Origin: an uncultured Gammaproteobacteria bacterium
GTDB taxonomy: Bacteria; Patescibacteriota; Microgenomatia; Levybacterales; GWA1-39-11
DNA length: 64,000 nt
Direction of reading: 5' to 3'
Assembly: GCA_964450885.1 (NCBI GenBank)
Contig: CAYVFE010000001.1
Span: forward strand, 374,572 to 438,571
Under the pieces are notes generated by a model. It saw only the letters and a list, made by a program, of their open reading frames with translations, was not told the DNA's origin and searched no databases. The translations under genes were made by a program, and so were the position numbers. Positions within the stretch are counted from its first letter, which is position 1. Every line of letters starts with the position of its first letter. This document shows positions 14,575 to 47,534 of this stretch, in pieces.

Positions 14575-14641
14575 CTGCCATATTGTAGATGATGATAATA
14601 AGGACTATGTAAGAAAACTATTTTTGAAGATATGTCAAAAG

Positions 14642-27820: not shown

Positions 27821-30247
27821 ATGTTGAGGAGTAATGCTTTTCTAGCATTTATTATTTTTTTATTTATTGGAGTTATTTTTTTTAACAAATCAGTATTTCA
27901 AGGGCAGGTTCCATTTCCTGGTGATTTGTTGATAGGACATTATAACCCCTATAATTCATATTCCTTTATGGGATATGCTCCTGGTAGCTTCCCCCATAAA
28001 GCCCAAAATATTGATGTTATAGAGCAACTATATCCATGGAAACATTTTTCTATAGAATCTTTAAAGGAATTAGAATTTCCTTTATGGAATCCGTATAACT
28101 TTTCTGGGACCCCCCATCTGGCAGCTATTCAGTCAGGAACATTCTACCCATTTAATCTGCTTTTTTTACTTTTGCCATTTAATCTTGGATGGACGATATA
28201 CATAATTTCACAGCCAGTTCTTGCTGGAATATTTACTTATTTCTTCCTAAGAGAACTAAGGCTTTCTTTCAAAAGCTCTATTCTGGGAGGGTTGGCATTT
28301 TCATTCTCTTCTTTTTTAGTAGTCTGGATGCAGTATGGGAATATAATTCATGCGGTGCTCTGGCTGCCGCTTATTTTATGGTTAGGAATTAAAAATCTAA
28401 AGAAACCAAGTCTGGTCAAATCCGTCCTGATCTCGTTATTTTTGGCATTCTCTGTGCTTGCAGGACATTTTCAAGTATCGATCTACTTATACGGATTTAG
28501 TTTTATATTTCTTGTTTTCATGACAGCTAAATTCTATAGGGAAAGATTTTTTATGAATATGCTGACTCTTGCAGGAATATATATATTTTCATTATTGATT
28601 TCATCAGTTCAGCTCATTCCATCTATCGAGATTTTCTTGAATTCATCGAGAACAGACTATACATACGAGAGATTAGTGGAATTTTTAATACCGACATATC
28701 ATTCCATAAGTATGCTTTTTCCTGATTTTTTCGGAAATCCAGTGAGCCGAAATTATTGGCCGGCCGGGACATATATAGAAAGGGCCACTTACTTTGGTAT
28801 AGTGCCGCTATTTTTTGCACTTTATGCAATTATCTCAAGAAAAAGTTCAGTCGTATGGTTTTTTGTCTTATCGATACTTGCGGTATTTATTATAGCCTTC
28901 GATTCTTTCATAACTAGATTTATTTACTCGATATATATACCTCCGATTATTGCGACTTCAGTCCCTACGAGGATAGTCTTCGTGCTGATTTTTTCTGGCA
29001 GCGTACTTGCAGCATTTGGATATAACGAAATCGAAAAAGCAAAGAAGTTCAAGCACCTGTTGCTGACGATAATAGTCTTTAGTGCCATTGTCATTTCAAC
29101 ATGGTTTTTTGTGATTGTGGCTCCGCAATTATTTCAAGGGGCCCAATGGACCATATATATGCCCACTGCACTTCGTAATTTATTTATTCCTACGCTCGCA
29201 TTCTCGCTTGTTATTTTTTTATTAATGCTTTTTATCCTCAAGGAGAAGAGACCTTTGAAAAAATATGCAAATTTTATAAAAAGATATTTGTTCGCGGTTA
29301 TACTTCTTGCAACAATTTTTGAATTATATTTTTTCTTCAGTAAATTTTCGCCCTTTTCTCCAGGAGAGTTCATTTATCCGCAGACTTCGGTGTTTAATTT
29401 TATAAAGCAAAATCAGGATATCTATAGATCATGGGGATATGGTGCCTCCAGTATTCCTGTAAACATCCAGACATATGAAAAGATCTACTCGACAGATGGT
29501 TATGACCCTTTTTATATAAGGCGCTACGGGGAGTTGTTATCGACTACAGAAAATGGAGTTGTCTCAGAATCTATAAAAAGGGCAAACGCTAATTTAGCTC
29601 CGGGATATGGGGAAGAGAATTTACGAGATAATCTATATCGACAAAAGATGATGAATATTTTGGGCGTGAAATACATTATTCATAAAAAGCCTCAGGATAC
29701 TTTTGCACATGATCAGACGTTTGATGACTCTATATATAATTTGGTTTGGAACGACAAAGATCTCCAGATTTACGAAAATACACAAGTATTACCGAGAGCA
29801 TTCATGGTTACAGACTATATAGTTTTGAAAGATGAAAAGGAAATTATAAAAAAGCTTTATGACGATTCATTCGATCCTTCTTCGCAAATAATTCTTGAAA
29901 AAGATCCGGGGTTTGAGAGCTCGGGAATGCCATTAGAATACGACTTGAAAATCAGCGACTATAGAGCCAACAAAATTGAGATATCAGTAGAATCCAGTAC
30001 TGATGCATTACTATTCTTGTCGGATTCATATTTTTCCGGATGGAAAGCGCGTGTAGATGGCTCAGAGACAAATATTTTCAGAGCAAACTACGCGCTCCGC
30101 GCTATAAAAGTCCCTAAGGGTGAGCACGCGGTGGTTTTTTCTTACGAACCAGATTCATTCAAGTTAGGATCGACAGTATCTTCGATAGCCATAGGTTCTG
30201 CTGTAATATTACTCATATTTAGTTATTATAGGAAAAGATCAAAATGA
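27821..30247 (+). CDS. YfhO-family membrane protein (GT-C-like), paralog 1
   Basis: Canonical YfhO N-terminus (QLYPWKHFSIESLKELEFPLWNPYNFSGTPHLAAIQSGTFYPFN) and a C-terminal YFSGWKARVDG motif. The ATG at 27821 directly follows the upstream stop; the tracked start at 27806 is TTG. Confidence 0.85.
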   Translation: MLRSNAFLAFIIFLFIGVIFFNKSVFQGQVPFPGDLLIGHYNPYNSYSFMGYAPGSFPHKAQNIDVIEQLYPWKHFSIESLKELEFPLWNPYNFSGTPHLAAIQSGTFYPFNLLFLLLPFNLGWTIYIISQPVLAGIFTYFFLRELRLSFKSSILGGLAFSFSSFLVVWMQYGNIIHAVLWLPLILWLGIKNLKKPSLVKSVLISLFLAFSVLAGHFQVSIYLYGFSFIFLVFMTAKFYRERFFMNMLTLAGIYIFSLLISSVQLIPSIEIFLNSSRTDYTYERLVEFLIPTYHSISMLFPDFFGNPVSRNYWPAGTYIERATYFGIVPLFFALYAIISRKSSVVWFFVLSILAVFIIAFDSFITRFIYSIYIPPIIATSVPTRIVFVLIFSGSVLAAFGYNEIEKAKKFKHLLLTIIVFSAIVISTWFFVIVAPQLFQGAQWTIYMPTALRNLFIPTLAFSLVIFLLMLFILKEKRPLKKYANFIKRYLFAVILLATIFELYFFFSKFSPFSPGEFIYPQTSVFNFIKQNQDIYRSWGYGASSIPVNIQTYEKIYSTDGYDPFYIRRYGELLSTTENGVVSESIKRANANLAPGYGEENLRDNLYRQKMMNILGVKYIIHKKPQDTFAHDQTFDDSIYNLVWNDKDLQIYENTQVLPRAFMVTDYIVLKDEKEIIKKLYDDSFDPSSQIILEKDPGFESSGMPLEYDLKISDYRANKIEISVESSTDALLFLSDSYFSGWKARVDGSETNIFRANYALRAIKVPKGEHAVVFSYEPDSFKLGSTVSSIAIGSAVILLIFSYYRKRSK

Positions 30248-31788
30248 TGAAAAATATTTTGAAGAATGCATCGTTTGTATTGCTGGTAGCTATTGTTACG
30301 CTCCCGGCGATTATCCCGCTTTTTAATTCGGGATTCATGGTGACAGATGATGGGGGATGGATGATAATTCGTCTTTCAGCATTTTACGATACTTTAAGAG
30401 ACGGACAGATTCCGGTCAGGTTTTTAGAAAGGATTAACTTCGGATACGGATACCCGGTTTCAAATTTTTTGTATCCTGGCTATCTTTATCTAGGATCTGT
30501 GGTTCACATGGTTGGGTTTGGTTTTATAGATAGCATAAAGATCCTATTTGGCTTATCTATTATTTTTTCGGGCATATTTTCGTTTATTTGGTTAAGAAGG
30601 CTATTTGGTAATGTAGACTCACTTATAGGCTCTCTTGTTTTCGTCTATTCTCCCTATCATCTATTTGATATCTACAAGCGAGGCTCACTGGGTGAGGCAT
30701 TATCGATTTCCGTAATGCCACTTGCTTTTTACGGTATCGAAAAAGGAAGTACGATATTGATAAGCCTATCAGTTTTCTTGATTTTGATATTGCACAATTC
30801 TCTAGCAGTATTCTTCCTTCCGTTGATACCTATCTATGCGCTTATCAGGAAGTCTTTTGTTAGATCCATCCCTGGTATGGGTCTGGGGATTTTCATGTCT
30901 GCATTTTTTACAGTCCCCGCATTGGTTGAATTGAAATATACAAAATTTTTTGAGACACAGATATCAAACCCTTTAGAGTATTTTGCTGATATAAATCTAA
31001 TTGGCATCGTATCTATAGTCATACTTTTTTCTACAATATTTTTAATTTTTGCGATATATAAAAATGAGATAAAAAAAGTTCCATATTTGGGATTCGTCAT
31101 ATTTTTTGGTGCAATATTCATTGCTTCAATATTTTTAAGTACTAGTCTCAGTTCTATATTCTGGCAAAACGTGAATGCGTCTTTTGTTCAATTTCCATAT
31201 AGAATATTGTCTGTTCTTATCGTGTGCTCATCTTTTTTTGCAGCATTTATCTCATATATATTGTTCAAGCAGATAAAAATAGTTGCGATTGTTATAATTT
31301 CCGGACTTGTAATATATTCCGGCTATAGCTATTTGTCAGATATTAAGTATGATAATAATCCTGATGGGTACTATTCGACAAATGAAGCGACCACTACAAT
31401 TCACGATGAGTATATGCCTGTATGGGTCAAGAATCATCCTAGTAGCCGTCCGGAAAACAAGGTAGAGGTGCTATCTGGAGATGCACAAATAACTAACTTG
31501 AGAGTTAATTCATCAAAAATAGAATTTGATACCGTTGTTAATTCTAATTCAAAAATCCGCGTGAACACTATTTATTGGCCAGGGTGGAGGCTTTTTGTCG
31601 AAGGAGAAGAAAGAGAGATTTCATATGACAATGATTATGGTGTTATGGAATTCGAATTGAGTCAATATGATGATAGAGTATACCTTTCGTTTCAGGAGGA
31701 CCTTATTAGGACACTTAGTAACATGGTATCGATCGTCGCGGCGCTGACTCTCATATATTTTATTTCCCGACCGCTGGTTAAATTTTAA
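30244..31788 (+). CDS. '6-pyruvoyl-tetrahydropterin synthase-related' polytopic membrane protein (GT-C-like), paralog 1
   Basis: Family N-terminal signature (IPLFNSGFMVTDDGGWMIIRLSAFYDTLRDGQIPVRFLERINFGYGYP) and a C-terminal YWPGWRLFVEG. Confidence 0.7.
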   Translation: MMKNILKNASFVLLVAIVTLPAIIPLFNSGFMVTDDGGWMIIRLSAFYDTLRDGQIPVRFLERINFGYGYPVSNFLYPGYLYLGSVVHMVGFGFIDSIKILFGLSIIFSGIFSFIWLRRLFGNVDSLIGSLVFVYSPYHLFDIYKRGSLGEALSISVMPLAFYGIEKGSTILISLSVFLILILHNSLAVFFLPLIPIYALIRKSFVRSIPGMGLGIFMSAFFTVPALVELKYTKFFETQISNPLEYFADINLIGIVSIVILFSTIFLIFAIYKNEIKKVPYLGFVIFFGAIFIASIFLSTSLSSIFWQNVNASFVQFPYRILSVLIVCSSFFAAFISYILFKQIKIVAIVIISGLVIYSGYSYLSDIKYDNNPDGYYSTNEATTTIHDEYMPVWVKNHPSSRPENKVEVLSGDAQITNLRVNSSKIEFDTVVNSNSKIRVNTIYWPGWRLFVEGEEREISYDNDYGVMEFELSQYDDRVYLSFQEDLIRTLSNMVSIVAALTLIYFISRPLVKF

Positions 31789-33461
31789 TGAAAAAATTAT
31801 TACTATTCATATTATCAATAATAATACTCATTCCTGCTCTTCTGCCTCTTTTTAGAAATGGATTTTTTGTCATACATGACAATACTCAGGTAGAGAGAGT
31901 ATCTCAGATGTCAAAAGCTCTTAGTGAGGGAAATTTTCCCGTTAGGTGGGTCGAGGATCTAGGGTATGGTTATGGGTATCCAATCTTTAATTTTTATGCA
32001 CCCTTGCCATATTATATAGGAGGATTTTTTGAGCTGGTCGTAAATGATGCAATTGTAGCTACAAAATTAATGTTTGCTATTGGTACGATTATCTCATTTT
32101 TTTCAATGTATCTTCTTGCATCAGCGCTTACAAACAAGTATGCAGGTTTTTTAGCGGGAGTGATTTATCTATATTTTCCATATCATGCATTAAATATTTA
32201 TGTCAGAGGAGCGGTGGGCGAATTTTTTGCGTACGCATTTATTCCGCTAGTTTTTTGGGGAATATATTATATTTTTAAGAAAATTAAGATCCAAAAAAGA
32301 TCAAGAGTATTATTAACAGAATCGATTTTTCTTTCTATACCTTTAGCTCTGGTGACGATTTCTCACAATTTAAGCGCATTTATGTTGGGACTTTTTATGG
32401 CTCCTTATATTCTGTTTTTTCTCATTAAAGTAAAAAATAAGAAGCCTTATATATATTCCATTGCTATACTTTGCGCAACTGCATTTATGCTTTCCGCATT
32501 TTATGTACTTCCTGCTATTTTCGAATCACAATTTACAAATGTGAGATCCCAGATCGGTGGGGGCGCCGACTATCCAGATCATTTTGTATGTATAGTACAA
32601 CTATGGAGCAGTAATTGGGGGTTTGGCGGTTCTGCGCCGGGGTGTATAGATGGAATTAGTTTCGCTTTGGGAAAGATCAACATTTTGATCCTGGTCTTTG
32701 CCTTTGCTTTTTTTGCTAAGGATCTTGTTCTGCATAGAAAAAAGACACATGAGAGTATTTTTTGGATACTTTTAGGAATGTCTATATTCCTACTATTGCC
32801 TATTTCTCAAATATTTTGGGACACCTTTCCTTTCATGGAATATCTTCAATTCCCATGGAGATTCTTGAATTTTGTAGGACTTTTTATTGGTTTGATTGGT
32901 GCTTTTGTGATGTATAAGCTTAAAAAGAATTATCTTGCCCTGATAAGTATTCTGATAATAATTGTAGTTACTATTTACTCGAACGTAAACCTGTTTTCTC
33001 CCGTCGTGTTTACCGATTACGATAGTAATTATTATGAAAATAGAGATCATATAAGGTGGGAGACTTCAAAGATATCAGATGAGTATATGCCTCGGGATTT
33101 TGATAAGCCGTTAGCTCAGGACAATTTACCAGAAGAACTGGTGGCAGCATCCGTCGGTGTATCTATTGACAATGTGACTTCTAGAACAGGCTTTATCGAA
33201 ATCAAAAAAAGTGGTAACAGTGGAGTAATCCATATAAATAAAGCTTATTTTCCTGCTTGGGAGGGTAGTATAGATGGTAAAAATATAGATATAACAAAAT
33301 CAAATACGGGAATGTATATACAAGTTCCCGAGGGGGAAAAGGAGATAACTCTAAGAATCGGATCCACACCAATTCAGGTTATAGGAAATACACTTACGAT
33401 AATTGGAATAGTTGCCGTTATTGTTGCTATAATTGCAAAAAAGAAAAAGTTATATGAATAA
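31788..33461 (+). CDS. PTPS-related polytopic membrane protein (GT-C-like), paralog 2
   Basis: Same family signature (LPLFRNGFFVIHDNTQVERVSQMSKALSEGNFPVRWVEDLGYGYGYP) and a C-terminal YFPAWEGSIDG. Confidence 0.7.
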   Translation: MKKLLLFILSIIILIPALLPLFRNGFFVIHDNTQVERVSQMSKALSEGNFPVRWVEDLGYGYGYPIFNFYAPLPYYIGGFFELVVNDAIVATKLMFAIGTIISFFSMYLLASALTNKYAGFLAGVIYLYFPYHALNIYVRGAVGEFFAYAFIPLVFWGIYYIFKKIKIQKRSRVLLTESIFLSIPLALVTISHNLSAFMLGLFMAPYILFFLIKVKNKKPYIYSIAILCATAFMLSAFYVLPAIFESQFTNVRSQIGGGADYPDHFVCIVQLWSSNWGFGGSAPGCIDGISFALGKINILILVFAFAFFAKDLVLHRKKTHESIFWILLGMSIFLLLPISQIFWDTFPFMEYLQFPWRFLNFVGLFIGLIGAFVMYKLKKNYLALISILIIIVVTIYSNVNLFSPVVFTDYDSNYYENRDHIRWETSKISDEYMPRDFDKPLAQDNLPEELVAASVGVSIDNVTSRTGFIEIKKSGNSGVIHINKAYFPAWEGSIDGKNIDITKSNTGMYIQVPEGEKEITLRIGSTPIQVIGNTLTIIGIVAVIVAIIAKKKKLYE

Positions 33462-34164
33462 GATATCCGAATTATCCATATTTTTTCCGTTCTGGAATGA
33501 AGGAAAGAATGTAAAAAAAGTAATGGAAGATGCAATTTCGGTTGCGAAGGAGGTCTCCGTAAATTGGGAGATAATCATGGTTGATGATGGATCTTCAGAT
33601 GATACAAAAGAGGAATGCAGAAAATTCTCTAAAAGATTCAAGAATATAAAGCTTGTGTCACATACTCCAAACAGGGGGTATGGTGCAGCCTTGCGTTCAG
33701 GCCTTGAAAACTCAAAGTACAAATATATAGTATTTACAGACGGTGACAGGCAATTTGATTTCTCGCAAGTTACTAAATTTATTGATGAAATAAAAAATGC
33801 AGATATAGTGATTGGATATCGCAAGCAAAGGCAAGACAGTTTTATAAGACATATCCTCATGAATTTGCTTAAAGTATGGGATTACGTCTTTTTCAGGTTT
33901 TACTTTAGGGACATAGACTGTGGATTCAAGATGTTTAGAAAATCCGCTGTAGAAAAAATTTCGCCTCTCAGGTCAGAGGGAGCTATGGTAACTACAGAAA
34001 TATTAGCAAAAGCGAGGAGAAAGGGGTTAAGGATTTCAGAAGTTGAGGTAAATCATTATCCCAGAAAATTTGGTTCGCAAAGTGGAGCGAACTTTCCCGT
34101 AGTGATTAGGGCAGTTTTGGAGAGTTTTATTCTATGGCTTGATATCCACAACAAAAGGATCTAG
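33454..34164 (+). CDS. GT2 polyprenol-phosphate glycosyltransferase (DPM1-like), copy 2
   Basis: Carries LSIFFPFWNEGKNV…IIMVDDGSSDDT…FTDGDRQFD. The ATG at 33454 overlaps the upstream stop. Confidence 0.8.
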   Translation: MNKISELSIFFPFWNEGKNVKKVMEDAISVAKEVSVNWEIIMVDDGSSDDTKEECRKFSKRFKNIKLVSHTPNRGYGAALRSGLENSKYKYIVFTDGDRQFDFSQVTKFIDEIKNADIVIGYRKQRQDSFIRHILMNLLKVWDYVFFRFYFRDIDCGFKMFRKSAVEKISPLRSEGAMVTTEILAKARRKGLRISEVEVNHYPRKFGSQSGANFPVVIRAVLESFILWLDIHNKRI

Positions 34165-34184
34165 GAAATGGTTATACTTTATAT

Positions 34185-35642
34185 ATGGAGAATTTCACGT
34201 TCGAAGCAATCGCAAAAAAATCTGTTCACGGAGTATTAGCGCTTACTACAAGAACTTTCTTTATTCAAATTCTAGGTATTTTTGCCAGTTTTATTCTGAC
34301 TCTCTATCTAGACGAATTTAGCTTCGGGGTTTTTGCTATAGTTTCGTCTCTTATTATCTTTTTTGGTTATTTTCAAGATATTGGTCTTGCTGCATCTCTT
34401 ATTCAAAAAAAAGACAAACCGACGATTATTGATTTCAGGACAGTCTTTACGGTCCAGCAAATCTTTGTTTTGGTGCTCGTTGTTCCAGCCATGATATTCT
34501 CCGACCAAATAGTTTCATTGTATGGGCTGGGCTTTGATGGCCAGCTGTTGTTTATAGCGTTGCTTGTGTCTTTCTTTATTAATTCTGTAAGAACAATCCC
34601 GACTGTAATGATGGAGAGAGACCTTCAATACAGCAAGCTCGTCATTCCAGAAATAGTTGAAGGGATTCTTTATAACGTTACTCTTATAATAGGTGCCGTC
34701 ATGGGATTTGGAGTGACAAGCTTTACTTTAGCGGTCTTGATACGTGCGATCGGAGGACTCATCGCCACATATATAATTCGCCCCTGGAGTATTGGTTTTG
34801 CATTTGACAGAGACTCATTGAAACAGCTTTTGTCATTTGGAATTCCATATCAGCTCAATAACATATTGGCTTTATTTAAAGATCATTTTTTGACTTTGTA
34901 TTTAGGATTGATCCTTCCACTTTCTCAGCTCGGAATCATTGCTTTTGCTCAAAAGCTTGCATTTTTGCCTCTACGACTCATTATGGACAATATAATAAAG
35001 ATCACATTTCCGTCGTACAGCAGGCTTCAAGATGATAAGAAGTCTTTAAGAATAGCGATAGAGAAATCACTTTTCGTCATATCCTTTTTCATATTTCCTG
35101 TTGCTGTCATGATAATTATGTTCACGCCATTTCTTATCGAATTTATTCCGCGATACGGAAAGTGGCAGCCTGCGATTTTATCCGTCATGTTTTTTGCACT
35201 AAGTACTGTTCTTTCATCGATCTCGACTCCACTAACAAATTTTCTCAATGCAATCGGTAAAGTAAAGATAACGTTTTACTTTATGATTTTCTGGACGATT
35301 GCAACTTGGATAACAACGGTTATTGCGGTTTCGCGTATGGGATTTAATGGAGTAGCCTTTGCTGCATTTCTTGTCAGTCTTAGCTCATTTGGAGTTTTTA
35401 TAGTTACGAAAAGGTATTTAGATTTTTCAGTTCTCAAACCTACGTATAAATCTTTTATAGCCGCCCTCATCATTGCCATATTTATCTTCTTTACAGATTT
35501 TCTTATTACGTCGTTTATTGTTCTTATTGTATGGAGCATTATTTCTGGATTTATATATATGGGAATAATGCTTTTGATTTCAAGGAAAGAATTAATTTCG
35601 ACTATAAAGTTTGCTAAAAGCTCTTTTTCGAAAGAAAAATAA
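34185..35642 (+). CDS. Polysaccharide/oligosaccharide flippase, MOP superfamily (Wzx-like)
   Basis: 485 aa with ~12-14 TM helices. The N-terminal region is typical of PF01943/PF13440. Confidence 0.7.
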   Translation: MENFTFEAIAKKSVHGVLALTTRTFFIQILGIFASFILTLYLDEFSFGVFAIVSSLIIFFGYFQDIGLAASLIQKKDKPTIIDFRTVFTVQQIFVLVLVVPAMIFSDQIVSLYGLGFDGQLLFIALLVSFFINSVRTIPTVMMERDLQYSKLVIPEIVEGILYNVTLIIGAVMGFGVTSFTLAVLIRAIGGLIATYIIRPWSIGFAFDRDSLKQLLSFGIPYQLNNILALFKDHFLTLYLGLILPLSQLGIIAFAQKLAFLPLRLIMDNIIKITFPSYSRLQDDKKSLRIAIEKSLFVISFFIFPVAVMIIMFTPFLIEFIPRYGKWQPAILSVMFFALSTVLSSISTPLTNFLNAIGKVKITFYFMIFWTIATWITTVIAVSRMGFNGVAFAAFLVSLSSFGVFIVTKRYLDFSVLKPTYKSFIAALIIAIFIFFTDFLITSFIVLIVWSIISGFIYMGIMLLISRKELISTIKFAKSSFSKEK

Positions 35643-35647
35643 TATCT

Positions 35648-36568: not shown

Positions 36569-36569
36569 T

Positions 36570-37484: not shown

Positions 37485-37485
37485 G

Positions 37486-39180
37486 ATGTTGAAAAAAAAA
37501 GGATTTATTTTTTTAATTTTTATAATTCTGGTTGGACTTGTTCCGCTTCTGGATTTATTTAATAGTGGATTGCCTCTAACTCATGATGGTAAAGACCATG
37601 TAGCAAGAATCGCAAATTTCTACCAGTCTTTAGTAGAGGGTAATATAATTCCCCGTTGGGGCGCTAATTTGAATTGGGGATTCGGGCATCCAGTAATGAT
37701 GTTTCTGTATCCATTTTCTTCTTACGCAGCCTCACTATTCCATTTTCTTGGCTTTACTCTAATCGATTCTCTTAAGATCGTTTTTGGGGTATCATTTGTG
37801 GTTTCAGGTATTGGGATGTATTTGTGGGTCAATAAGCTTTTTGGGAATTATTCCGGTGTGCTTGCAGCAGTTCTTTATATGTTCGCTCCATATAGATTCG
37901 TGAACTTATATGTGAGAGGAGCCATAGGTGAGCATGTGTCATTTACATTTATTCCATTCATACTCTTTTTCATAACTAGAATATTTTTCAACAAGAAAAA
38001 ATCACTGCGGTCAATTCTTCCTGATTTAATATGTGTGTCAGTATTTACAGCTTTCTTGATTCTTTCCCATAACGCACTAAGCATTTTGTTTTTAGTCTTT
38101 GCGGCTTTTTATACACTAGTGCTTTTCTATAGTATTCGTGAGGTAAGAAAATTAATTTTTATATTCATTAGTGTTATTTACGGCTTTTTACTGTCGGCAT
38201 TTTTTTGGCTTCCCGCATATATAGAGGGAAAGTACACTCTTCGTGACATAGTGACTGGAGGTTTTGAGTATGCCGATAGATTTGTTATTAGTCCAGTTGA
38301 ATTCATCATGCCTTCTTGGAGCTATGGCATTACAGGTCAGTTGTCTGTACAGATCGGTATATTACATATATCACTAATTATCATTTCCTTATTTGTGGTT
38401 TTTAAACTATCAAAAAAAGAAAAACTTACGAAAAGCCTTTTCATCTTAACCTTTGCATTCTTTCTTCTTTCTTTATTTATGATGTTGAAACAGTCCGATT
38501 TCATATGGAGTTCCATAAGTACTATTCAGAAATTTCAATTTCCATGGAGATTCCTGTCTTTGACAGTTTTGACTAGCGCTTTTTTGGGCGCGTTTTGCTT
38601 TGCCGTAATTAAAAAAGAAAATAAGAAAATAGTAGGAATAGCTATTGTTTTGCTTCTAACGGCTTTCTTTTATGCTTCTTACTGGAGGGCAAACGATTAT
38701 TTACTAAAGTCAGATGGATTCTTTAAGTCGGTTTATCACGGTACTACAGACACCGGAGAGAGTTCTCCTATCTGGTCAATAAGATTTATGGAAAAAGAGG
38801 CGAGTGGTCCTATTGAGGTAATTTCAGGGAGTGCATTAATTCAAGAAAAATATAGATCGACGACAAGTCATGTGTACACTGTGGACGTACAACAAAGAGC
38901 TAGGATAAAAGAGAACACGCTTTATTTTCCAGGCTGGAATATATATGTTAATGACAAGAAGCTTGATGTGAACTCAGAAATAGAATTTCAAGATCCACAA
39001 AATAGGGGTGTAATGACTTTCTGGTTGGACCCGGGTAAATATAACGTCAGGGTTGAGTTTGAAGAAACACGATTGAGGACAGTTTCTGCTGCAGCGTCTA
39101 TACTATCACTTATTTCTCTTGCATTGCTTACTATATATATGGTTGTGGTTAAGAAAACCAATGAAAAAAATAATTCTTAA
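37486..39180 (+). CDS. PTPS-related polytopic membrane protein (GT-C-like), paralog 3
   Basis: Carries LDLFNSGLPLTHDGKDHVARIANFYQSLVEGNIIPRWGANLNWGFGHP and a C-terminal YFPGWNIYVND. The ATG at 37486 directly follows the upstream stop. Confidence 0.7.
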   Translation: MLKKKGFIFLIFIILVGLVPLLDLFNSGLPLTHDGKDHVARIANFYQSLVEGNIIPRWGANLNWGFGHPVMMFLYPFSSYAASLFHFLGFTLIDSLKIVFGVSFVVSGIGMYLWVNKLFGNYSGVLAAVLYMFAPYRFVNLYVRGAIGEHVSFTFIPFILFFITRIFFNKKKSLRSILPDLICVSVFTAFLILSHNALSILFLVFAAFYTLVLFYSIREVRKLIFIFISVIYGFLLSAFFWLPAYIEGKYTLRDIVTGGFEYADRFVISPVEFIMPSWSYGITGQLSVQIGILHISLIIISLFVVFKLSKKEKLTKSLFILTFAFFLLSLFMMLKQSDFIWSSISTIQKFQFPWRFLSLTVLTSAFLGAFCFAVIKKENKKIVGIAIVLLLTAFFYASYWRANDYLLKSDGFFKSVYHGTTDTGESSPIWSIRFMEKEASGPIEVISGSALIQEKYRSTTSHVYTVDVQQRARIKENTLYFPGWNIYVNDKKLDVNSEIEFQDPQNRGVMTFWLDPGKYNVRVEFEETRLRTVSAAASILSLISLALLTIYMVVVKKTNEKNNS

Positions 39181-41500
39181 ATACTGGCCCACTATCTTTA
39201 TAATGTTATTCTGGGGTCTTTTTTCAGCCCCTTATTTACTGGAAGGTCTTGTTCCTTATCCATCTTTCTTCCAGTCAAATTTCTTTGCGCCATGGAGCGC
39301 TTATTCCACATATGTAGGACCTGTAAAGAACAATGCAATGCCGGACATCATTACACAGATATATCCATGGAGGGACTTTACTATAGACTCATTAAAAAAT
39401 CTACAGATACCATTCTGGAATCCTTATAGCTTTGCAGGAACACCGCATCTGGCAAACTATCAGTCCGCTGTTTTTTTTCCACTAAATATACTTTTCTTTC
39501 TACCGATAGGATTTGTAAATTCTTGGAGTCTTTTGGTTCTACTCCAGCCCCTGCTGGCAGGTCTTGGCATGCTAGTTCTTCTTAGAAATTATAAATTGTC
39601 ACAAATACCTAGCGTTATGGGGGCGGTTTCATTTATGTTCTGTGGATTTATCGTTACATGGATGGGATACGCGACATTGGGGTATGCAATTGTTTTCTTG
39701 CCGTTAGCATTTTTCTTTATAGACAAATTCATGGAGCAGGAAAAAAGTCGGTATGGGGTCATGCTCTCGATTACTTTGGCGCTTTCATTTTTTGCAGGAC
39801 ATTTCCAGACGAGTATTTATCTTCTCATCGCAGTTTTTTCATACGTATTGTTTATTGGAATAAGAAAAAAAGAAAAAAGAAGATTTGTTTATTTAATTAT
39901 ATATTTGGCATCAGGGATATTTATTTCAATGCCTCAGATCCTTCCCTCAATAGAGTTTTATCTTCATTCAGTAAGACAAACGATTGTGACACAGCTCGAG
40001 GTAATACCTATGCAGTATATTCCAACACTATTTGCGCCTGATGTATTTGGAAATCCAGTAACCCGCAATGATTGGTTGGGGCATTATGCTGAGTGGAATG
40101 GTTTTACAGGTACATCAACTCTCATTCTTGCTTTTTTTGCTGCAATTTCTTTGCTAAGGAAGAATAAGAAAGTCTTGTACTTTTCTATCCTTGCGATTTT
40201 CTCTCTACTTGTGGCGTTTGATACTCCAGTTAATGCTCTAATTTTCAAACTAAACCTTCCTCTATTTTCCACAAGTGCATCCAGCAGAATTATAGTGTTG
40301 TTGTCGTTTTCTTTATCTGTTTTAGCAGCATTCGGAGTAGATTATTTGAAAAAGAATATTAAGGAGATATCCTTTAGAAGAGTTTTGCTATTTTTGGGGA
40401 TTGGGTTATTTTTTACGGTTTTATCATGGACAGTGTCTCTTGTAGTTACCGCGGGAGATGTGGAAAAATTTATAATAGCGAGAAACAATCTAATAGTCCC
40501 TACAGGCATATCTTTGGTCGTGTCCGCACTTATACTAGCGCTATATTTTTTCAAAAAAAGAAGAAATCTGATAAGTATAATTTTGCTATTTATGCTTATC
40601 ATAACAGCCTTTGATCTATATAGATTTGCGAATAAATGGATGCCTTTTTCTCCAAAAGAATTTATTTTTAAAGAAACAGGTGTATCAAATTTTTATGAAA
40701 ATAATTTGACTCAAAGCAGATATCTTGGGAATCTATCAGCGGAAAATTCAGTTTATTATAGACTGCAGTCTCTTGGTGGATATGATCCACTATACCCATC
40801 GCGGTATGGGGAATTCGTCAAGTATATAGAGAAAGGAATTAAAGAAGATGGAGACAGGTCTGTGGTTAATTTTCCGTTGCGCGGTGAGCGAGTTGGCAAG
40901 GCTATGGATTTTATTGGTACAGAATTTATACCACAAAAAAGATCAGATGATAGTAAGCCCTGGGCATTTAATTTTGACGCTTTTCCTGTTGAAAAATTTG
41001 AAGTGGTATATGAGGATGATGCGTATAGAATATTTAGGAATAAAGATGCATTTCCGAGAGCATTTGTTGTGGGTTCTTATATTGTTGAGGATAACGACCT
41101 AAAGACGCTTCAGTTGATGTTCGCTGATGACACAAATCTACGCGACAAAGTGTTTCTTGAAAAAAGTCCACAAATCGAAAGCCATGAGCTCAATGTATCT
41201 TCTGCTGAGGTTGTAGCTTATTCACCAAATAGTGTTGAGATAAATGTTAATTCTGAAAATAGAGCAATACTTGTATTGACTGATAATTTTTACCCTGGTT
41301 GGAAAGCTTATATTAATAACGAAAATACAGAAATATTAAGAGCAGATTATACATTTAGAGCTGTTGTTGTGCCAGAAGGAAACTCTATTGTTAGATTTGA
41401 ATATTTGCCTCAATCTTTTATCTATGGGTTATATACTGCTATCTTAGGAAGTACGGTCCTGGTTGTAATGTCATTGGTTTATAATAAAAAAAGAAAATGA
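39161..41500 (+). CDS. YfhO-family membrane protein, paralog 2
   Basis: Carries QIYPWRDFTIDSLKNLQIPFWNPYSFAGTPHLANYQSAVFFPLN and a C-terminal FYPGWKAYINN. Confidence 0.85.
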   Translation: MKKIILKYWPTIFIMLFWGLFSAPYLLEGLVPYPSFFQSNFFAPWSAYSTYVGPVKNNAMPDIITQIYPWRDFTIDSLKNLQIPFWNPYSFAGTPHLANYQSAVFFPLNILFFLPIGFVNSWSLLVLLQPLLAGLGMLVLLRNYKLSQIPSVMGAVSFMFCGFIVTWMGYATLGYAIVFLPLAFFFIDKFMEQEKSRYGVMLSITLALSFFAGHFQTSIYLLIAVFSYVLFIGIRKKEKRRFVYLIIYLASGIFISMPQILPSIEFYLHSVRQTIVTQLEVIPMQYIPTLFAPDVFGNPVTRNDWLGHYAEWNGFTGTSTLILAFFAAISLLRKNKKVLYFSILAIFSLLVAFDTPVNALIFKLNLPLFSTSASSRIIVLLSFSLSVLAAFGVDYLKKNIKEISFRRVLLFLGIGLFFTVLSWTVSLVVTAGDVEKFIIARNNLIVPTGISLVVSALILALYFFKKRRNLISIILLFMLIITAFDLYRFANKWMPFSPKEFIFKETGVSNFYENNLTQSRYLGNLSAENSVYYRLQSLGGYDPLYPSRYGEFVKYIEKGIKEDGDRSVVNFPLRGERVGKAMDFIGTEFIPQKRSDDSKPWAFNFDAFPVEKFEVVYEDDAYRIFRNKDAFPRAFVVGSYIVEDNDLKTLQLMFADDTNLRDKVFLEKSPQIESHELNVSSAEVVAYSPNSVEINVNSENRAILVLTDNFYPGWKAYINNENTEILRADYTFRAVVVPEGNSIVRFEYLPQSFIYGLYTAILGSTVLVVMSLVYNKKRK

Positions 41501-42240
41501 AAAAAATAGATGTGCTTATTTTGACTAACAACGAAGAAGACGTAATTGAAAATGCTATAAAAAGCGTAAAAGGTTGGGCGGAGAATATCATAGTAGTTGA
41601 TGCTGGATCCACAGATAACACAAAAAAAATTTGCGAAAAGAATAAAGTGAGATTTATTACCCATAGCTTTACCGACTTTTCGGCTCAAAGAAATTTTGCG
41701 ATTGATCAAGCTAAATCTGAATGGGTGTTTTATCTAGACGCTGATGAAAGAGCTACTCAAGCATTTATAGAAGAAGTGAAGATGCGGATAGAGGATACTG
41801 ATAAGTCTGCATTTATCATAAAAAGGAAGACTTATTATTTCGGTAAAGACTGGGGGATGGAGGACAAAGTCACGAGAATATTTAAAAAAGATAAATTTGA
41901 TAAATGGACAGGTGTAGTTCATGAGACAGCACACGTAAATGGCGATTCTGGGCGAATAGATTCACCCATATTGCACTATACGCATCGCAATATCGAACAA
42001 ATGGTTACAAAGACAAATAACTGGTCGGAATATGAGGCGAAACTCAGATTTGATGCAGATCATCCAAAAATGCGTGAGTGGAGATTTATGCGGGTGATGG
42101 TATCTGAGTTTATGCGAAGCTACTTTAAAGATAAAGGATACAAAAATGGTACCTACGGAGTTGTAGAAGCTTTATATCAGGCATATTCGATTTTTATAAC
42201 CTACGCAAAGTTGTGGGAGTTGCAGACCAGAAAAGACTAG
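41497..42240 (+). CDS. GT2 glycosyltransferase
   Basis: Carries IDVLILTNNEED…IIVVDAGSTDNT…LDADERAT. The start overlaps the upstream stop in an ATGA arrangement. Confidence 0.8.
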   Translation: MKKIDVLILTNNEEDVIENAIKSVKGWAENIIVVDAGSTDNTKKICEKNKVRFITHSFTDFSAQRNFAIDQAKSEWVFYLDADERATQAFIEEVKMRIEDTDKSAFIIKRKTYYFGKDWGMEDKVTRIFKKDKFDKWTGVVHETAHVNGDSGRIDSPILHYTHRNIEQMVTKTNNWSEYEAKLRFDADHPKMREWRFMRVMVSEFMRSYFKDKGYKNGTYGVVEALYQAYSIFITYAKLWELQTRKD

Positions 42241-42482
42241 CCCTTTCTAAATATCTTTTTCCAGGATTTAATTTCTTTGAGTGTAAGTCTTTTTTTAGAA
42301 AATCTGAATAAATAGACCAATTCGAGTATTCCGACAGTATTTATTATAAGCATCACAATGAACCAATTTTGCTGCTTTTGATTTGCAGACTTCCACAACG
42401 CTATGCCTTTGATCAATGTTGACCAGATAGTTATTACCGTAATTATTATAAAATCTATGTTTTGATCTCCCGTAAGGCCCAT
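42237..42482 (-). CDS. Hypothetical small membrane protein (2 TM); the only minus-strand gene inside the cluster
   Basis: 81 aa and hydrophobic. Its stop overlaps the GT2 stop. Confidence 0.35.
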   Translation of the reverse strand: MGLTGDQNIDFIIITVITIWSTLIKGIALWKSANQKQQNWFIVMLIINTVGILELVYLFRFSKKRLTLKEIKSWKKIFRKG

Positions 42483-42545
42483 TAAATCAATTTAACATAG
42501 CTTTCTATAATTATCAATTGTTGGTACAATTAGCTTATAACTAGA

Positions 42546-43604
42546 ATGAAAATTGGGATATATTCACCATACTTAGATACTCTGACGGGGGGAGAGCTCT
42601 ATATTTTTACGATAGCAGAAGTCTTGTCGAAGAATCATGATGTGTTCTTGTTTTGGGACAAAAAAGAGATAGTAGATAAGGCAGAAAAAAGATTTAATCT
42701 AGATCTATCAAAAGTGAACATTCTAGAAAATATATTTTCTAGAAGATATGGTTTTTTTGATCGGATAAAATCATCAAGTAGTTTTGATCGTATTATTTAC
42801 CTTTCAGACGGGAGTTTGCCTTTTGTTGGTTTAAATAAGTTAATAGTGCATTTCCAATTCCCAATACTTAAAAAAAATGTTTCTCTTTCCGAAAGAAAAA
42901 AGATACTTTTCGTAAAAAGTGTTATTTGTAACTCTGAATTTACAAAAAAATATATAGATAAAGCATATGGTGTTAAAAGCCAGATACTCTATCCACCTGC
43001 ACAGAAAATTGGGCCGAGTAGGGATGCGAAAGAAAATATTATCTTAACTGTGGGCAGGTACCAGCCGTATGGTGATGGATCGGACTATAAAAAATTAAGC
43101 TTTATGATAGAAGCATTTAAAAAAATACATAAGAAAAATCCAAAGTGGAAGATGCTCATTATAACTAGCGTTAAAGACGCGGATGGTAAAGCATTCAAGA
43201 AAGAAATAGAAAATAAAGTTGATAAATCAATAGAAATAGTAAAGAATGCTGGATTTGATATTATTCAAAATGCATACAAAAAATCCAAGATCTATTGGCA
43301 TGCATCGGGATTTGGAGAGGACTTGGGAACTCATCCAGAAAGAGCAGAGCATTTTGGTATGTCTACCGTTGAGGCGATGTCTGCAGGTTGTATACCTGTT
43401 GTAATTAACGCAGGAGGCCAGAGCGAGATAGTTAGTGACGGTGAAAGCGGATTCTTGTGGGATAAGGAGGATGAGTTGTTGAACCTTACCCAGCAAATGA
43501 TTGACAGTAAGGATTTTAAAGTATTGTCAGAAAGGGTAAGGAAAGCGTCTGAGAGATTCGGTAAAGATAGATTTGCAGACGAGCTAGATAAGCTGATCAG
43601 ATGA
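42546..43604 (+). CDS. GT4 glycosyltransferase (GT-B fold)
   Basis: The C-terminal domain carries HFGMSTVEAMSAGCIPVVINAGGQSEIV…GFLWD, the GT4 signature with an EX7E-type motif. Confidence 0.8.
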   Translation: MKIGIYSPYLDTLTGGELYIFTIAEVLSKNHDVFLFWDKKEIVDKAEKRFNLDLSKVNILENIFSRRYGFFDRIKSSSSFDRIIYLSDGSLPFVGLNKLIVHFQFPILKKNVSLSERKKILFVKSVICNSEFTKKYIDKAYGVKSQILYPPAQKIGPSRDAKENIILTVGRYQPYGDGSDYKKLSFMIEAFKKIHKKNPKWKMLIITSVKDADGKAFKKEIENKVDKSIEIVKNAGFDIIQNAYKKSKIYWHASGFGEDLGTHPERAEHFGMSTVEAMSAGCIPVVINAGGQSEIVSDGESGFLWDKEDELLNLTQQMIDSKDFKVLSERVRKASERFGKDRFADELDKLIR

Positions 43605-45892
43605 TGGAATTTATAAGAAAAAATATACACATATTGTTTGGAGTGTTCTTTGTATCTATTTTTTTTCATAAGTTTTTTATTCAGGGATTACTTCCGATAC
43701 CAACAGATACGATAGTTGGTCTATATCATCCATACCGAGATTTTTACAGCTCGGAATATCCCAGAGGCATTCCCTTTAAGAACATGCAGATCAGCGATCC
43801 TGTAAGGCAGCAATACTTATGGAAAGAGCTTGCAGTCTCCCAAATGAAACAAGGGGAATTGCCTTTATGGAATCCATATAACTTTTCTGGATATCCTCTT
43901 ATGGCAAATTTCCAGACCGCAGCTTTTTACCCCCTAAATTTTTTAATGTTTATTACTTCGTTTGAATATGGTTGGTCGCTTCTTATATTCTCTCAAATCT
44001 TGCTCGCGTTTCTTTTTATGTACTTATACCTAACAAATCTAAAAGTTAGCAGAATAGGGTCACTTATAGGATCATTGTCATTCGCGTTTTGCGGATTCTT
44101 TGTGTCATGGCTTGAGTGGGGAAATATAGTAAGTACAGGTTTATGGCTACCTTTAATTTTGCTTTCTATAGATAAATTTTCATCAAAAAACGCTAATTTC
44201 ACATTAAAGAAAAAACTTATTTGGCCGACTGTTTTGTTTTTTGCATTTATCTGTTCATTTTTTGCCGGGCATCTGCAAACATTTTTGTATCTTTCGCTGA
44301 TATCTTTTGGTTACGCAGCAATGCAATTTGTAAGCGTCAGGCTTAAAATCAAACAGATCCTTTTGCTAATACTTTATGGTTTAATTTTTCTTATAGTAAC
44401 AGCTATTCAATGGGTGCCTACACTGCAGTTGATTAGTCTATCCGCAAGAGAAGTGGATCAGGTTGCAACGAACATTCCAGGGTGGTTTATCCCATGGCAG
44501 AACTTAACACAATTTATCGCGCCGGATTTTTTTGGGAATCCGGCGACTCTCAACTATTGGGGCGTTTGGAATTATGGTGAATTTGTAGGCTACATAGGTC
44601 TTTTACCATTGATTTTGGCCCTAGGCGTAATGGTCTTCAAACGCGATAAATTTACAAATTTCTTTGGTAGTGTACTCATTGTAGCTATGATCTGTGCATA
44701 TCCATCTATTATCTCCAAAATACCATTTATTCTCGAGATCCCTTTTATCTCTACATCTCAGCCTACCAGGCTCTTGTATGTGGTAGACTTGTCGCTTGCT
44801 GTGCTTGCTGCTTTTGGATTCGATTACTTTATGAAACATAGAAAGAGAATAGTTTTTCCTGTGATTGTGATTGGAGGTATTCTGAGTGCGCTTTGGGCAT
44901 ACGTCTACTTTAATGACTTGTTGCCCACAAGGCTTTTGACAGAATCTGGAAATATAGCTGTTACAAAGAGTAACCTGAGACTTCCTACGCTAATCTTTGG
45001 GATGACAGCAGTCTTATTGGTGGGAAAAGCTTTACTGCCAAAGAAATTTATTAAAGGTCGTTCTGGTAGCATTGTCATGGTTTTGGTTTTATCATTATTT
45101 TTAATAGATATTTTTAGGTTTGCAGATAAATATACGGTATTCTCTAGAAAAGAGTATTTATATCCGGAAACTAAATCATTGGAATATCTTTCAAATCAGG
45201 AAGGACATTTTCGCATAATGGAAACTGATTCTAGGCTTTTGCCACCTAATTTTTCGATAAAATATGGCATTCAAAGCGTAGATGGATATGATCCATTATA
45301 TCTTCTAAGGTATGGAGAGCTCGCAGCCGCGGTTGGACGCAGCGATCCTGATATCAATCCACCATTCGGATTTAATCGCATAATAACCCCACAAAATTAT
45401 CACGATAAAATAATCAATATTTTCAATGTGGAATACATCCTTTCTCTTACGGAACTGGATAATACAGACTATGAAAAAGTATTTGAGGAAAATGAGACCA
45501 GAGTTTACAGAAATAACGGACTTATAGAAAGGGCATTCTTTGCAGGTGCAACTTATGGAGCAAAAGATAAGTATGATGCTATTGGGAAGTTATTTGAGCA
45601 CGAAGATAACCTAGATCTTGACGTTATAGTTGAGGGTGCCAATTACCAAAGATTTGATAAAATGTGGTCAACGGGTAGTGTTGAGATTACTAAGTATTCT
45701 GCTAATGAAGTTAGACTGAGCGTAGATAATGACGAAGAAGGATTTTTGGTTCTCACAGACACGTACTATCCCACATGGAAAGCCGAGGTCGATGGTGTTC
45801 CCACAGAGATATTTATAGCAAACTATAATTTTCGAGGAGTAATTGTGCCAGCAGGATCTAAAGAAGTAATATTTACAAATCATATATTCTAA
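43601..45892 (+). CDS. YfhO-family membrane protein, paralog 3
   Basis: Carries QQYLWKELAVSQMKQGELPLWNPYNFSGYPLMANFQTAAFYPLN and a C-terminal YYPTWKAEVDG. Confidence 0.85.
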   Translation: MMEFIRKNIHILFGVFFVSIFFHKFFIQGLLPIPTDTIVGLYHPYRDFYSSEYPRGIPFKNMQISDPVRQQYLWKELAVSQMKQGELPLWNPYNFSGYPLMANFQTAAFYPLNFLMFITSFEYGWSLLIFSQILLAFLFMYLYLTNLKVSRIGSLIGSLSFAFCGFFVSWLEWGNIVSTGLWLPLILLSIDKFSSKNANFTLKKKLIWPTVLFFAFICSFFAGHLQTFLYLSLISFGYAAMQFVSVRLKIKQILLLILYGLIFLIVTAIQWVPTLQLISLSAREVDQVATNIPGWFIPWQNLTQFIAPDFFGNPATLNYWGVWNYGEFVGYIGLLPLILALGVMVFKRDKFTNFFGSVLIVAMICAYPSIISKIPFILEIPFISTSQPTRLLYVVDLSLAVLAAFGFDYFMKHRKRIVFPVIVIGGILSALWAYVYFNDLLPTRLLTESGNIAVTKSNLRLPTLIFGMTAVLLVGKALLPKKFIKGRSGSIVMVLVLSLFLIDIFRFADKYTVFSRKEYLYPETKSLEYLSNQEGHFRIMETDSRLLPPNFSIKYGIQSVDGYDPLYLLRYGELAAAVGRSDPDINPPFGFNRIITPQNYHDKIINIFNVEYILSLTELDNTDYEKVFEENETRVYRNNGLIERAFFAGATYGAKDKYDAIGKLFEHEDNLDLDVIVEGANYQRFDKMWSTGSVEITKYSANEVRLSVDNDEEGFLVLTDTYYPTWKAEVDGVPTEIFIANYNFRGVIVPAGSKEVIFTNHIF

Positions 45893-46827: not shown

Positions 46828-47534
46828 TGAAGCTATCAATACTGATCCCTGCCTACAATGAGCAGAATACTATTGAATCAGTACTTAACTCCTTAAATAA
46901 GCTCAAATTAGAGAAGGTAACAAAAGAAATAATAGTAATTGATGACGGTTCAACCGATGATACGCCCGGTATTTTATCTAGGCAAAGCAAAAGATTCGTT
47001 AAGGTTTTCACCCATAAGAAAAATAAAGGGAAAGGAGCTGCTATTCAGACCGGTATAAAGAAGGCAAGCGGCGATATTATTCTGATTCAGGATGCTGATT
47101 TGGAGTATAGTCCAAGAGATATTCCACGTTTGATTCGTCCGATTATCGATAGGCAGTTTGAGGTAGTGTATGGAACGCGGCTCAACATGAGGCCTGTTAT
47201 ATTCGGTAAAAAAAGAACACCATTTTTATTTCACTTTTTTGGCAATAAGCTATTGAGTTTGATTACTACTTTTCTTTATGGAGCCACTATTACAGATATG
47301 GAAACAGGGTACAAGGTATTTACAAGAAAGGCTCTAAGCGGAATTAGGCTCAATGCTAAATCGTTTGACTTCGAGCCAGAAATAACAGCAAAAATTCTAA
47401 AAAAGAGGATAAAAATACTAGAGATAGATATAAAGACTAATCCCAGAGGATATGATGAAGGAAAAAAAATCAGACCTATACAGGATGGGTTAATGGCACT
47501 TTGGACCTTGATAAAATACAGATTTGTGGACTAA
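46827..47534 (+). CDS. GT2 polyprenol-phosphate glycosyltransferase (DPM1-like), copy 3
   Basis: Carries LSILIPAYNEQNTIE…IIVIDDGSTDDT…IQDADLEYSP. Confidence 0.8.
   Translation: MKLSILIPAYNEQNTIESVLNSLNKLKLEKVTKEIIVIDDGSTDDTPGILSRQSKRFVKVFTHKKNKGKGAAIQTGIKKASGDIILIQDADLEYSPRDIPRLIRPIIDRQFEVVYGTRLNMRPVIFGKKRTPFLFHFFGNKLLSLITTFLYGATITDMETGYKVFTRKALSGIRLNAKSFDFEPEITAKILKKRIKILEIDIKTNPRGYDEGKKIRPIQDGLMALWTLIKYRFVD

Follow-up and report, generated by a model that had tools for sequence, protein, structure and literature searches.

The closest described relatives of the proteins treated here are the YfhO proteins of Bacillus subtilis, Staphylococcus aureus and Listeria and the streptococcal proteins PgtC2, PgfM1 and PgfM2, all members of one Pfam family (YfhO, PF09586). 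The systems to which such enzymes belong (CsbB/GtcA/YfhO, and likewise GtrA/B/C) combine a GT-A glycosyltransferase, a flippase and a GT-C glycosyltransferase; the donor is made inside the cell, and the sugar is transferred outside. We analyzed a stretch of 64,000 nucleotides from contig CAYVFE010000001.1 (here called the window), which comes from a member of the Levybacterales, a lineage of the candidate phyla radiation (CPR; Patescibacteria). It encodes three long-form YfhO proteins (Y1 to Y3) and three shorter, compact proteins (P1 to P3). An earlier note on this DNA had described the six as two distinct GT-C scaffolds with a common acceptor-binding domain at the C terminus. Our work leads to another reading, which we regard as probable: the six are anciently diverged paralogs within one YfhO-like GT-C branch, and the C-terminal β-sandwich with its membrane anchor was inherited and is mainly structural, rather than being a cassette placed on unrelated scaffolds.

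Y1 to Y3 belong to the same Pfam family as the enzymes named above, and by analogy their chemistry is probably the same, that is, the transfer of a sugar from polyprenyl phosphate to an extracytoplasmic polymer or protein. The activity known for the family moves the sugar from a C55-P carrier onto teichoic acid or onto protein regions rich in Ser and Thr. As in the GT-A/flippase/GT-C systems, genes for family 2 glycosyltransferases (GT2) of the DPM1/GtrB/ArnC type lie beside GT-C genes. Unlike the known YfhO systems, the window comes from a CPR bacterium and has three YfhO paralogs in a single cluster, none of them next to a GT2 of the CsbB type, with its two C-terminal transmembrane (TM) helices; the candidate donor synthases are short DPM1-like proteins of 235 to 251 amino acids. 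Two MOP/Wzx-type flippases (genes starting at 34185 and 56340) stand in place of GtrA, and with three candidate donor synthases for twelve GT-Cs, the two kinds of enzyme cannot be paired one to one. Among the listed results of a literature search on YfhO in CPR bacteria or Patescibacteria, no paper mentioned the two together.

The family PTPS_related (PF10131) is listed in the GT-C clan (PMC7801869). P2 and P3 score above its threshold, and their C-terminal region matches the YfhO model instead. That YfhO-like subfamilies of differing length exist is already recognized: in Durairaj et al. (Nature 2023, PMC10584680), "Component 27" comprises YfhO-annotated membrane proteins of ~665 amino acids, described as a YfhO-like family of their own with a link to STT3/PglB. 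The mycobacterial arabinofuranosyltransferase AftD has a GT-C core of 11 TM helices, an α/β domain, three β-sandwich carbohydrate-binding modules (CBMs), one "structural β-sandwich" and a re-entry into the membrane through TM12 (bioRxiv 10.1101/2019.12.22.885152). It resembles the proteins of the window in the 11-TM core, in the periplasmic domains that include β-sandwiches and in the single-helix return (PDB accession number 6W98). It differs from them in its size (~1400 amino acids), its three CBMs and an extra four-helix bundle that binds acyl carrier protein, and no similarity is detectable at the sequence level.

The six proteins and their C-terminal sandwich

All six open reading frames (ORFs) begin at the plus-strand ATG codons given in the earlier note (Table 1), and each of the C-terminal motif strings quoted there was found verbatim. 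With Pfam gathering thresholds of 28.5 bits for YfhO and 26.4 bits for PTPS_related, Y1 to Y3 are safely members of YfhO, as had been claimed, at 90 to 98 bits. The assignment of the other three to PTPS_related needs a qualification. P2 and P3 are above the threshold, through matches limited to profile positions 1-316 and 4-298 of 621, respectively, while P1 has no Pfam match and is nevertheless a clear, full-length paralog (blastp; 29% identity to P3 with an Expect value [E-value] of 2e-67, and 27% to P2 with E 5e-36). A full-length Pfam scan of P1, P2 and P3 gave no YfhO match at E <= 1. The YfhO proteins match the equivalog models of PgfM1 and PgfM2 weakly and over part of their length (23.7 to 27 bits; cut-offs, 1400 to 1500). 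Judged by their sequences, the P proteins would be better labeled compact YfhO-like than PTPS_related. The paralogs had been estimated by eye to be 30 to 40% identical, which is right for the YfhO proteins (31 to 35%) and slightly high for the short ones (27 to 29%).

Profile-profile comparison and cross-family hidden Markov models (HMMs) agree that the C-terminal module common to the two Pfam families is truly homologous. The alignments comprised 119 database homologs and the window paralogs per family. Locally aligned with hhalign, module and module scored 98.0% with an E-value of 1.6e-13 over 67 columns (P2 459-525 with Y1 708-776), against controls of 0-0.2% for the C-terminal part versus the core and 0.1% for the module versus the PMT_2-type GT-Cs of the window. 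With an HMM made from nothing but P-type modules from outside the window, Y1 to Y3 were the sole ORFs of the window detected (E 3-5e-9). In the opposite direction, an HMM made from YfhO proteins only found P2 (E 5e-6) and P1 (E 5e-5) and missed P3. The module HMM did not match the GT87/MptA_B-like and PMT_2 genes directly upstream of Y1, which serve as an internal contrast. Among 222 six-frame ORFs of at least 60 amino acids, exactly these six encode the pattern [YFW][YFW][PS][GAT]W. Given a short motif and hydrophobic, compositionally repetitive proteins encoded by AT-rich DNA, the resemblance might be one of chance or composition. The hhalign value against its controls, the cross-family HMM at E ~4e-9 and predicted strands that lie in register (see below) rule this explanation out, and we give it a negligible probability.

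The module is not foreign to the YfhO family. The C-terminal fragments of P2 and P3, which score just 13.8 to 13.9 bits on PF09586 when taken alone, match positions 757-821 (E 0.019) and 756-826 (E 0.018), respectively, of the 835 positions of the Pfam YfhO model. The C terminus of this model was matched by 25 of 29 module fragments; of the 15 P-type fragments in this set, at least 11 must be among the matches. The shared β-sandwich thus equals about positions 750-835 of the model.

AlphaFold2 models of full-length P2 (predicted local distance difference test [pLDDT], 93.4; predicted TM-score [pTM], 0.93) and of the Y1 ectodomain (residues 525-808; pLDDT, 93.6) predict the same β-sandwich for both, as the earlier note had proposed, with eight strands that match one by one and are followed by a helix. 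The strands are 458-466, 469-476, 479-483, 491-495, 498-500, 503-505, 508-513 and 518-524 in P2 (helix 528-556) and 707-715, 718-725, 729-736, 741-745, 748-750, 752-755, 759-764 and 767-775 in Y1 (helix 778-807). The offset between them is constant at 249 to 251 residues, which is the register of the independent hhalign alignment, and in both models strand 4 starts with the Trp of Y(F/Y)PGW. Y-type proteins have in addition an α/β subdomain of ~180 residues on the N-terminal side of the sandwich and a helix of ~26 residues that is absent from the P type.

Y1 consists of a core of ~12 TM helices, an ectodomain of ~270 amino acids and a terminal TM helix; P2 has an 11-TM core, an ectodomain (amino acids 404-527) and a terminal TM helix, and its model gives 12 membrane spans. 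Hydropathy plots show 13 segments with pre-terminal loops of 274 amino acids in Y1 and 266 amino acids in Y2, so these two have the YfhO architecture of a big loop and then a last helix. Y3 keeps the large loop and, unlike the other five proteins, lacks the final helix. It stops right after the sandwich (...VIFTNHIF, with the 3' end at 45881-45892), and the gene that follows, for a GT2, begins at 45892 and leaves no space for a lost terminal piece. The terminal anchor therefore appears to be dispensable in at least one paralog.

The charge pattern of the loops follows the positive-inside rule and places the shared domain outside the cytoplasm, where the earlier note had expected it; a cytoplasmic location, which the note would have taken as a refutation, was not seen. 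Every short Lys- and Arg-rich loop of P2 (KIQKRSR, KNKK, HRKKT, KKN and the KKKKLYE tail) is on one side of the membrane; the opposite side has the first loop with Asp31, the loop with C268 and C286 and the C-terminal domain. In Y1 the loop ahead of the last core helix holds 7 Lys/Arg, and the tail reads YYRKRSK. The topology of B. subtilis YfhO agrees with an ectodomain outside the cytoplasm (PMC5836110). The C268/C286 loop is an insert of the P2 lineage (WGFGGSxxGCxDGxSF, residues 266-292) with two near-invariant cysteines and is absent from P1 and P3; from its sequence, it is probably a disulfide-stabilized loop specific to the P2 ortholog group.

Relatedness of the cores and role of the sandwich

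The view that YfhO and the compact proteins are distinct scaffolds holds at most at the level of two subfamilies, since their cores are homologous, too. Residues 86-244 of P align with residues 118-269 of Y at 97.6% (E 2.7e-12), and core against core gave 92% over 268 columns (E 6.5e-7). When forced end to end in global mode, the full proteins aligned at E 1.4e-19 with their elements in the same order; the 535 aligned columns of that run are forced, and we take significance from the local-mode values. P0028, a P2 homolog with 43% identity, scores 43.6 bits on the core of Pfam YfhO, which is above threshold, versus 33.5 bits on PTPS_related, and about one-fifth of the listed P2 homologs carry precomputed matches to both families. 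Cross-family identity is 23 to 32% in the core and 23 to 29% in the module. Recent exchange of a module should leave it more alike than the core; the similar values fit inheritance better than acquisition of the module by domain shuffling. We conclude that P and Y are two ancient subfamilies with the whole architecture in common. They are likely to be each other's nearest relatives within GT-C.

A sequence-profile search of the PDB with full Y, full P and the module found no real relative, the lone marginal match being 8fg6_B ("C104.1"; E 0.06-0.07). By structure, Foldseek matched the P2 model at a probability of 1.00 to AglB/STT3, AftD, AftA, EmbA/B, ArnT, AftB and Pmt4. AftD gave the highest TM-score (0.50) and the lowest root mean square deviation (rmsd; 5.2 Å over 428 columns) and was also the best PDB match of the Y1 ectodomain (69 columns; rmsd, 1.6 Å; 19% identity; E 5e-3). 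P2 is thus placed in GT-C by fold superposition, and the Y cores are placed there by Pfam and by their hhalign match to P. Judging from the models, sandwich and anchor probably correspond to the AftD layout of β-sandwich domains followed by TM12.

An Asp in the first outside loop is invariant in each family, as D31 in P2 (D36 in P1 and D34 in P3) and as D65 in Y1 (D62 in Y2 and D66 in Y3). Y1 keeps the family-invariant residues D65, R277, D302, E320 and R384, and P1 keeps D36, R43, R59, E151 and H184. Because the family-invariant residues are kept in all six proteins, save the near-invariant Asp35 in Y2, all six are probably active enzymes. At this position, within a PGD motif just past TM1, at least 95% of Y1-type homologs have Asp35, and Y2 has Phe at residue 36.

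We hypothesize that the long form (Y1 to Y3, ~780 amino acids, Pfam YfhO) and the compact form (P1 to P3, ~515 to 565 amino acids, on the border of PTPS_related and YfhO) are built to one plan. Each chain would start in the cytoplasm, run through a GT-C core of 11 to 12 helices with the Asp in its first outside loop, continue into an outward C-terminal domain that ends in the eight-strand sandwich with Y(F/Y)PGW, and return to the cytoplasm through the last membrane helix, except in Y3. The most likely task of the sandwich is to brace or cover the catalytic core on its periplasmic side. We favor such a structural, core-supporting role because the residues conserved across both families in the module are W, P, F and G only, because the charged residues that are invariant in YfhO (R659, D735 and R760) are not kept in the P family, and because the motif persists in tens of thousands of clusters whose acceptors presumably differ.

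What else could the sandwich do? It could be a CBM-like module that binds the acceptor, one polymer or protein common to all six enzymes, on two GT-C scaffolds, as the earlier note had suggested. The module is extracytoplasmic and has the usual fold of CBMs; Foldseek returned weak matches to accessory sandwiches of glycoside hydrolases (GH146 and GH30) and to a xylan-binding domain (E 0.008-0.17); and a review speculates that the ectodomain of S. aureus YfhO binds carbohydrate, as in AftD (PMC8035078). Within the cluster, the PMT_2 and GT87-type GT-Cs lack the module, and family HMMs split the P and Y cores cleanly; both facts are also in line with a module on separate scaffolds. We nevertheless consider acceptor binding unlikely, given that the cores are homologous as well, with identical domain order, and that the two families resemble each other no more in the module than in the core. 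Conservation of W, P, F and G is what one expects of residues at the heart of a fold; the motif is retained in ~50,000 clusters, whose acceptors are presumably diverse; and it is unlikely that six specialized paralogs in one cluster would all have the same binding specificity. Sandwich and terminal helix might instead be mainly a docking element, with the motif at the subunit interface of hetero-oligomeric GT-C assembly lines. In line with such contacts, Y1-P1-P2 and P3-Y2 are runs of neighboring genes whose order is conserved and whose stop and start codons overlap, and in nature two to four (core + module) units, also of mixed type, occur fused in a single chain. Y3 has the module yet neither a Y- or P-type neighbor nor a terminal helix, and the same region is present in the single-copy YfhO enzymes of Firmicutes, within the Pfam YfhO model; docking as the main function thus seems to us even less probable than acceptor binding.

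Several observations weigh against our preferred reading of one branch with an inherited, structural sandwich. The P core also resembles PMT_2-type GT-Cs (96.1%, E 3.7e-9, 97 columns in the GT-C signature region), and similarity of the cores alone is therefore no proof that P and Y are closest relatives within GT-C. Family HMMs separate P and Y cores cleanly among 57 sampled full-length representatives, with two weak double matches, and we rejected the idea of a P-Y continuum on the basis of this split. P2 and P3 cover the N-terminal half alone of the PTPS_related model. The match of AftD to the Y1 ectodomain is weak and is not assigned to a particular AftD domain, and the role of the sandwich, be it structural or glycan binding, is deduced from conservation patterns alone. 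As to the pathway outlined below, no small flippase of the GtrA/GtcA type was present among the ORFs of the window that were inspected or Pfam scanned, small ORFs included, nor did the window show an initiating phosphoglycosyl transferase.

A conserved cluster of twelve GT-C genes

The window has a GC content of ~36%, and positions 24330-64000 form one long run of plus-strand genes of ~40 kb (Table 1). From 24330 to the end of the window, the cluster encodes twelve GT-Cs, namely, the GT87/MptA_B-like protein (25087), five PMT_2-type proteins (26290, 47564, 49189, 50798 and 59525), the three Y and the three P proteins. The remaining genes include those for three short DPM1/GtrB/ArnC-like GT2 enzymes, seven other GT2 and three GT4 enzymes and two MOP flippases, together with an epimerase, an aminotransferase and a methyltransferase. 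The three short GT2 enzymes (24330, 33454 and 46827) are, on sequence grounds, probably polyprenyl-phosphate-sugar synthases. By the logic of GT-C and CsbB/YfhO-type systems (PMC5836110, PMC8035078, PMC12041528), they would load sugars onto polyprenyl phosphate in the cytoplasm, the lipid-linked sugars would be flipped across the membrane, and on the outer side each of the twelve GT-Cs, these six included, would attach its particular sugar to a glycoprotein or surface glycan.

Table 1. Positions in the window of the six GT-C genes, their C-terminal modules and terminal helices, and selected neighboring genes
Feature	Position	Strand	Description and evidence
Y1	27821..30247	+	YfhO-family GT-C glycosyltransferase, 808 aa; PF09586 92.6 bits, E 2.8e-26
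Y1 module	29939..30145	+	aa 707-775; YFSGW at 30029-30043
Y1 terminal TM helix	30152..30241	+	KR-rich cytoplasmic tail after helix
P1	30244..31788	+	compact YfhO-like/PTPS-related-like GT-C, 514 aa; paralogy to P2 and P3
P1 module	31462-31692	+	YWPGW at 31573-31587; module HMM E 2e-27
P1 terminal TM helix	31702-31776	+	
P2	31788..33461	+	compact GT-C, 557 aa; PF10131 49.8 bits, E 2.6e-13
P2 module	33141..33359	+	aa 452-524; YFPAW at 33246-33260
P2 terminal TM helix	33369-33455	+	
P3	37486..39180	+	compact GT-C, 564 aa; PF10131 41.4 bits, E 8.8e-11
P3 module	38812-39060	+	YFPGW at 38923-38937; module HMM E 3e-21
P3 terminal TM helix	39070-39162	+	
Y2	39161..41500	+	YfhO-family GT-C, 779 aa; PF09586 90.6 bits, E 1.2e-25
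Y2 module	41198-41404	+	FYPGW at 41288-41302
Y2 terminal TM helix	41411-41497	+	
Y3	43601..45892	+	YfhO-family GT-C, 763 aa; PF09586 98.0 bits, E 6.6e-28
Y3 module	45674-45880	+	YYPTW at 45764-45778
DPM1/GtrB/ArnC-like GT2	24330..25085	+	251 aa; first gene of the cluster; Pfam GT2; DPMS 5mlz E 2.5e-16, GtrB 5ekp, ArnC
DPM1/ArnC-like GT2	33454..34164	+	236 aa; ArnC 9bhc E 2e-14; DPMS E 1e-11
DPM1-like GT2	46827..47534	+	235 aa; DPMS 5mlz E 5e-20, full length
MOP/Wzx-type flippase	34185..35642	+	485 aa; Pfam Polysacc_synt_3 E 1e-44
GT87/MptA_B-like GT-C	25087-26253	+	no module, internal contrast; Pfam
PMT_2 GT-C	26290-27819	+	no module, internal contrast; Pfam

Each YfhO gene had been said to lie beside a PTPS-related gene and a GT2. 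This is correct for Y2, which has a PTPS-like gene upstream and a GT2 gene downstream, and not for the other two. Y1 has the PTPS-like gene downstream and a PMT_2 gene upstream, with the nearest GT2 two genes off on either side, and Y3 lies between a GT4 gene (upstream) and a GT2 gene (downstream), with no PTPS-like neighbor. Hence, modular GT2/GT-C/GT-C units, which had been proposed from this arrangement, do not fit every one of the three YfhO genes.

Homologs with a name belong to "Candidatus Levybacteria" and further members of the Patescibacteria, and identical copies of P2 and Y1 are present on a contig of 588 kb. The order GT2, GT87-like, PMT_2, YfhO, P1-like, P2-like, GT2, flippase, GT2, GT2, P3-like, YfhO, GT2, GT4 recurs in other genomes. 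In Levybacteria-like genomes each paralog has its own syntenic orthologs with 43 to 64% identity, versus 26 to 35% between paralogs. The orthologs being more alike than the paralogs, the duplications predate these lineages, in agreement with the ancient origin that the earlier note had assumed. In two of the related loci (L003 and L004; 15893-19383), a LexA-like repressor and a methylase/specificity pair of a type I restriction-modification system are inserted between the GT2 pair and the P3-like gene.

The sole minus-strand gene inside the cluster (42240-42491) encodes an 84-amino-acid, two-helix membrane protein of family DUF5652 (E 1e-22) and sits in the only sizeable intergenic gap (42241-42545). 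In a relative (locus L002) a homologous ORF at 13449-13706 occupies the same spot, between the genes for a 247-amino-acid GT2 and a GT4. Between the epimerase and a GT4 gene, the plus strand of the window encodes a 354-amino-acid polytopic membrane protein without a Pfam match (54242-55306), whose position would suit a polymerase- or ligase-like function.

Directly upstream of the cluster, a tRNA-Glu(CUC) gene (24164-24237, minus strand) overlaps the 3' end of a 230-amino-acid ORF without a Pfam match (23510-24202, plus strand), which may be over-called or shorter than listed. A tRNA-Gln(CUG) gene lies at 19037-19108. Previously unlisted small membrane genes in seemingly empty parts of the window are those for a DgkA-type lipid kinase (10182-10547, plus strand; E 2e-30), a SemiSWEET/PQ-loop sugar transporter (10830-11168, minus strand; E 1e-6) and a low-affinity iron permease (14200-14604, minus strand; E 1e-47). 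The kinase is possibly an undecaprenol kinase, which would be relevant to the supply of lipid carrier.

Spread of the module, tandem fusions and significance

A search of 1.84 billion proteins with the module profile gave 50,387 matching cluster representatives with a cut-off of E <= 1e-3; with E <= 1e-10, the number was 10,982. In the best 148 of the 50,387 matches, every protein of at least 450 amino acids has a Y- or P-type core ahead of each module, and the matches without a detectable core are all shorter than 450 amino acids and probably are fragments. Nineteen of these 148 exceed 900 amino acids, and in most of them two to four (core + module) units are fused in tandem. There are Y-Y fusions (for example, P0243 to P0245) and a P-P fusion (P0242), and in P0241 (3,329 amino acids, four modules) and P0283, P-type units follow modules whose cores are assigned by neither model. 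Tandem fusion fits the topology, because the two ends of each unit are cytoplasmic. On its contig (locus L005, 5680-10200), P0244 is encoded by one unbroken ORF of 4.5 kb, and we found no description of such multi-GT-C fusions. The fusion proteins of 1.5 to 3.3 thousand amino acids in public metagenomes are P0241 to P0245, P0254, P0265, P0268, P0283, P0299, P0304, P0330 and P0384.

Our work reveals no new mechanism: the module is already inside the Pfam YfhO model, and acceptor handling by YfhO ectodomains is already raised in the literature (PMC8035078). What is new is modest, namely, the presence of the YfhO sandwich and anchor in compact "PTPS-related" proteins of CPR bacteria, the syntenic cluster of twelve GT-Cs and the multi-unit fusions. 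More speculatively, the Y(F/Y)PGW sandwich with its anchor could be the hallmark of a GT-C subclade, not yet described as such, that unites classical YfhO, the compact PTPS-related-like form and AftD, and the Y-P-P and P-Y arrays and the fusions of up to 3,329 amino acids could be physically coupled extracytoplasmic assembly lines for a lineage-specific surface glycan of CPR bacteria; we find this broader proposal doubtful and put it forward tentatively.

For annotation, the consequence is a correction: many CPR proteins named "6-pyruvoyl-tetrahydropterin synthase-related" are compact YfhO-like glycosyltransferases with the YfhO sandwich and anchor. Organisms such as Levybacteria are thought to live attached to hosts. 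For a CPR genome, which is small, ~40 kb of glycosylation genes is a very large fraction. The syntenic, ~40-kb cluster with its twelve GT-Cs represents a big investment in surface glycosylation by the genome-reduced Levybacteria.

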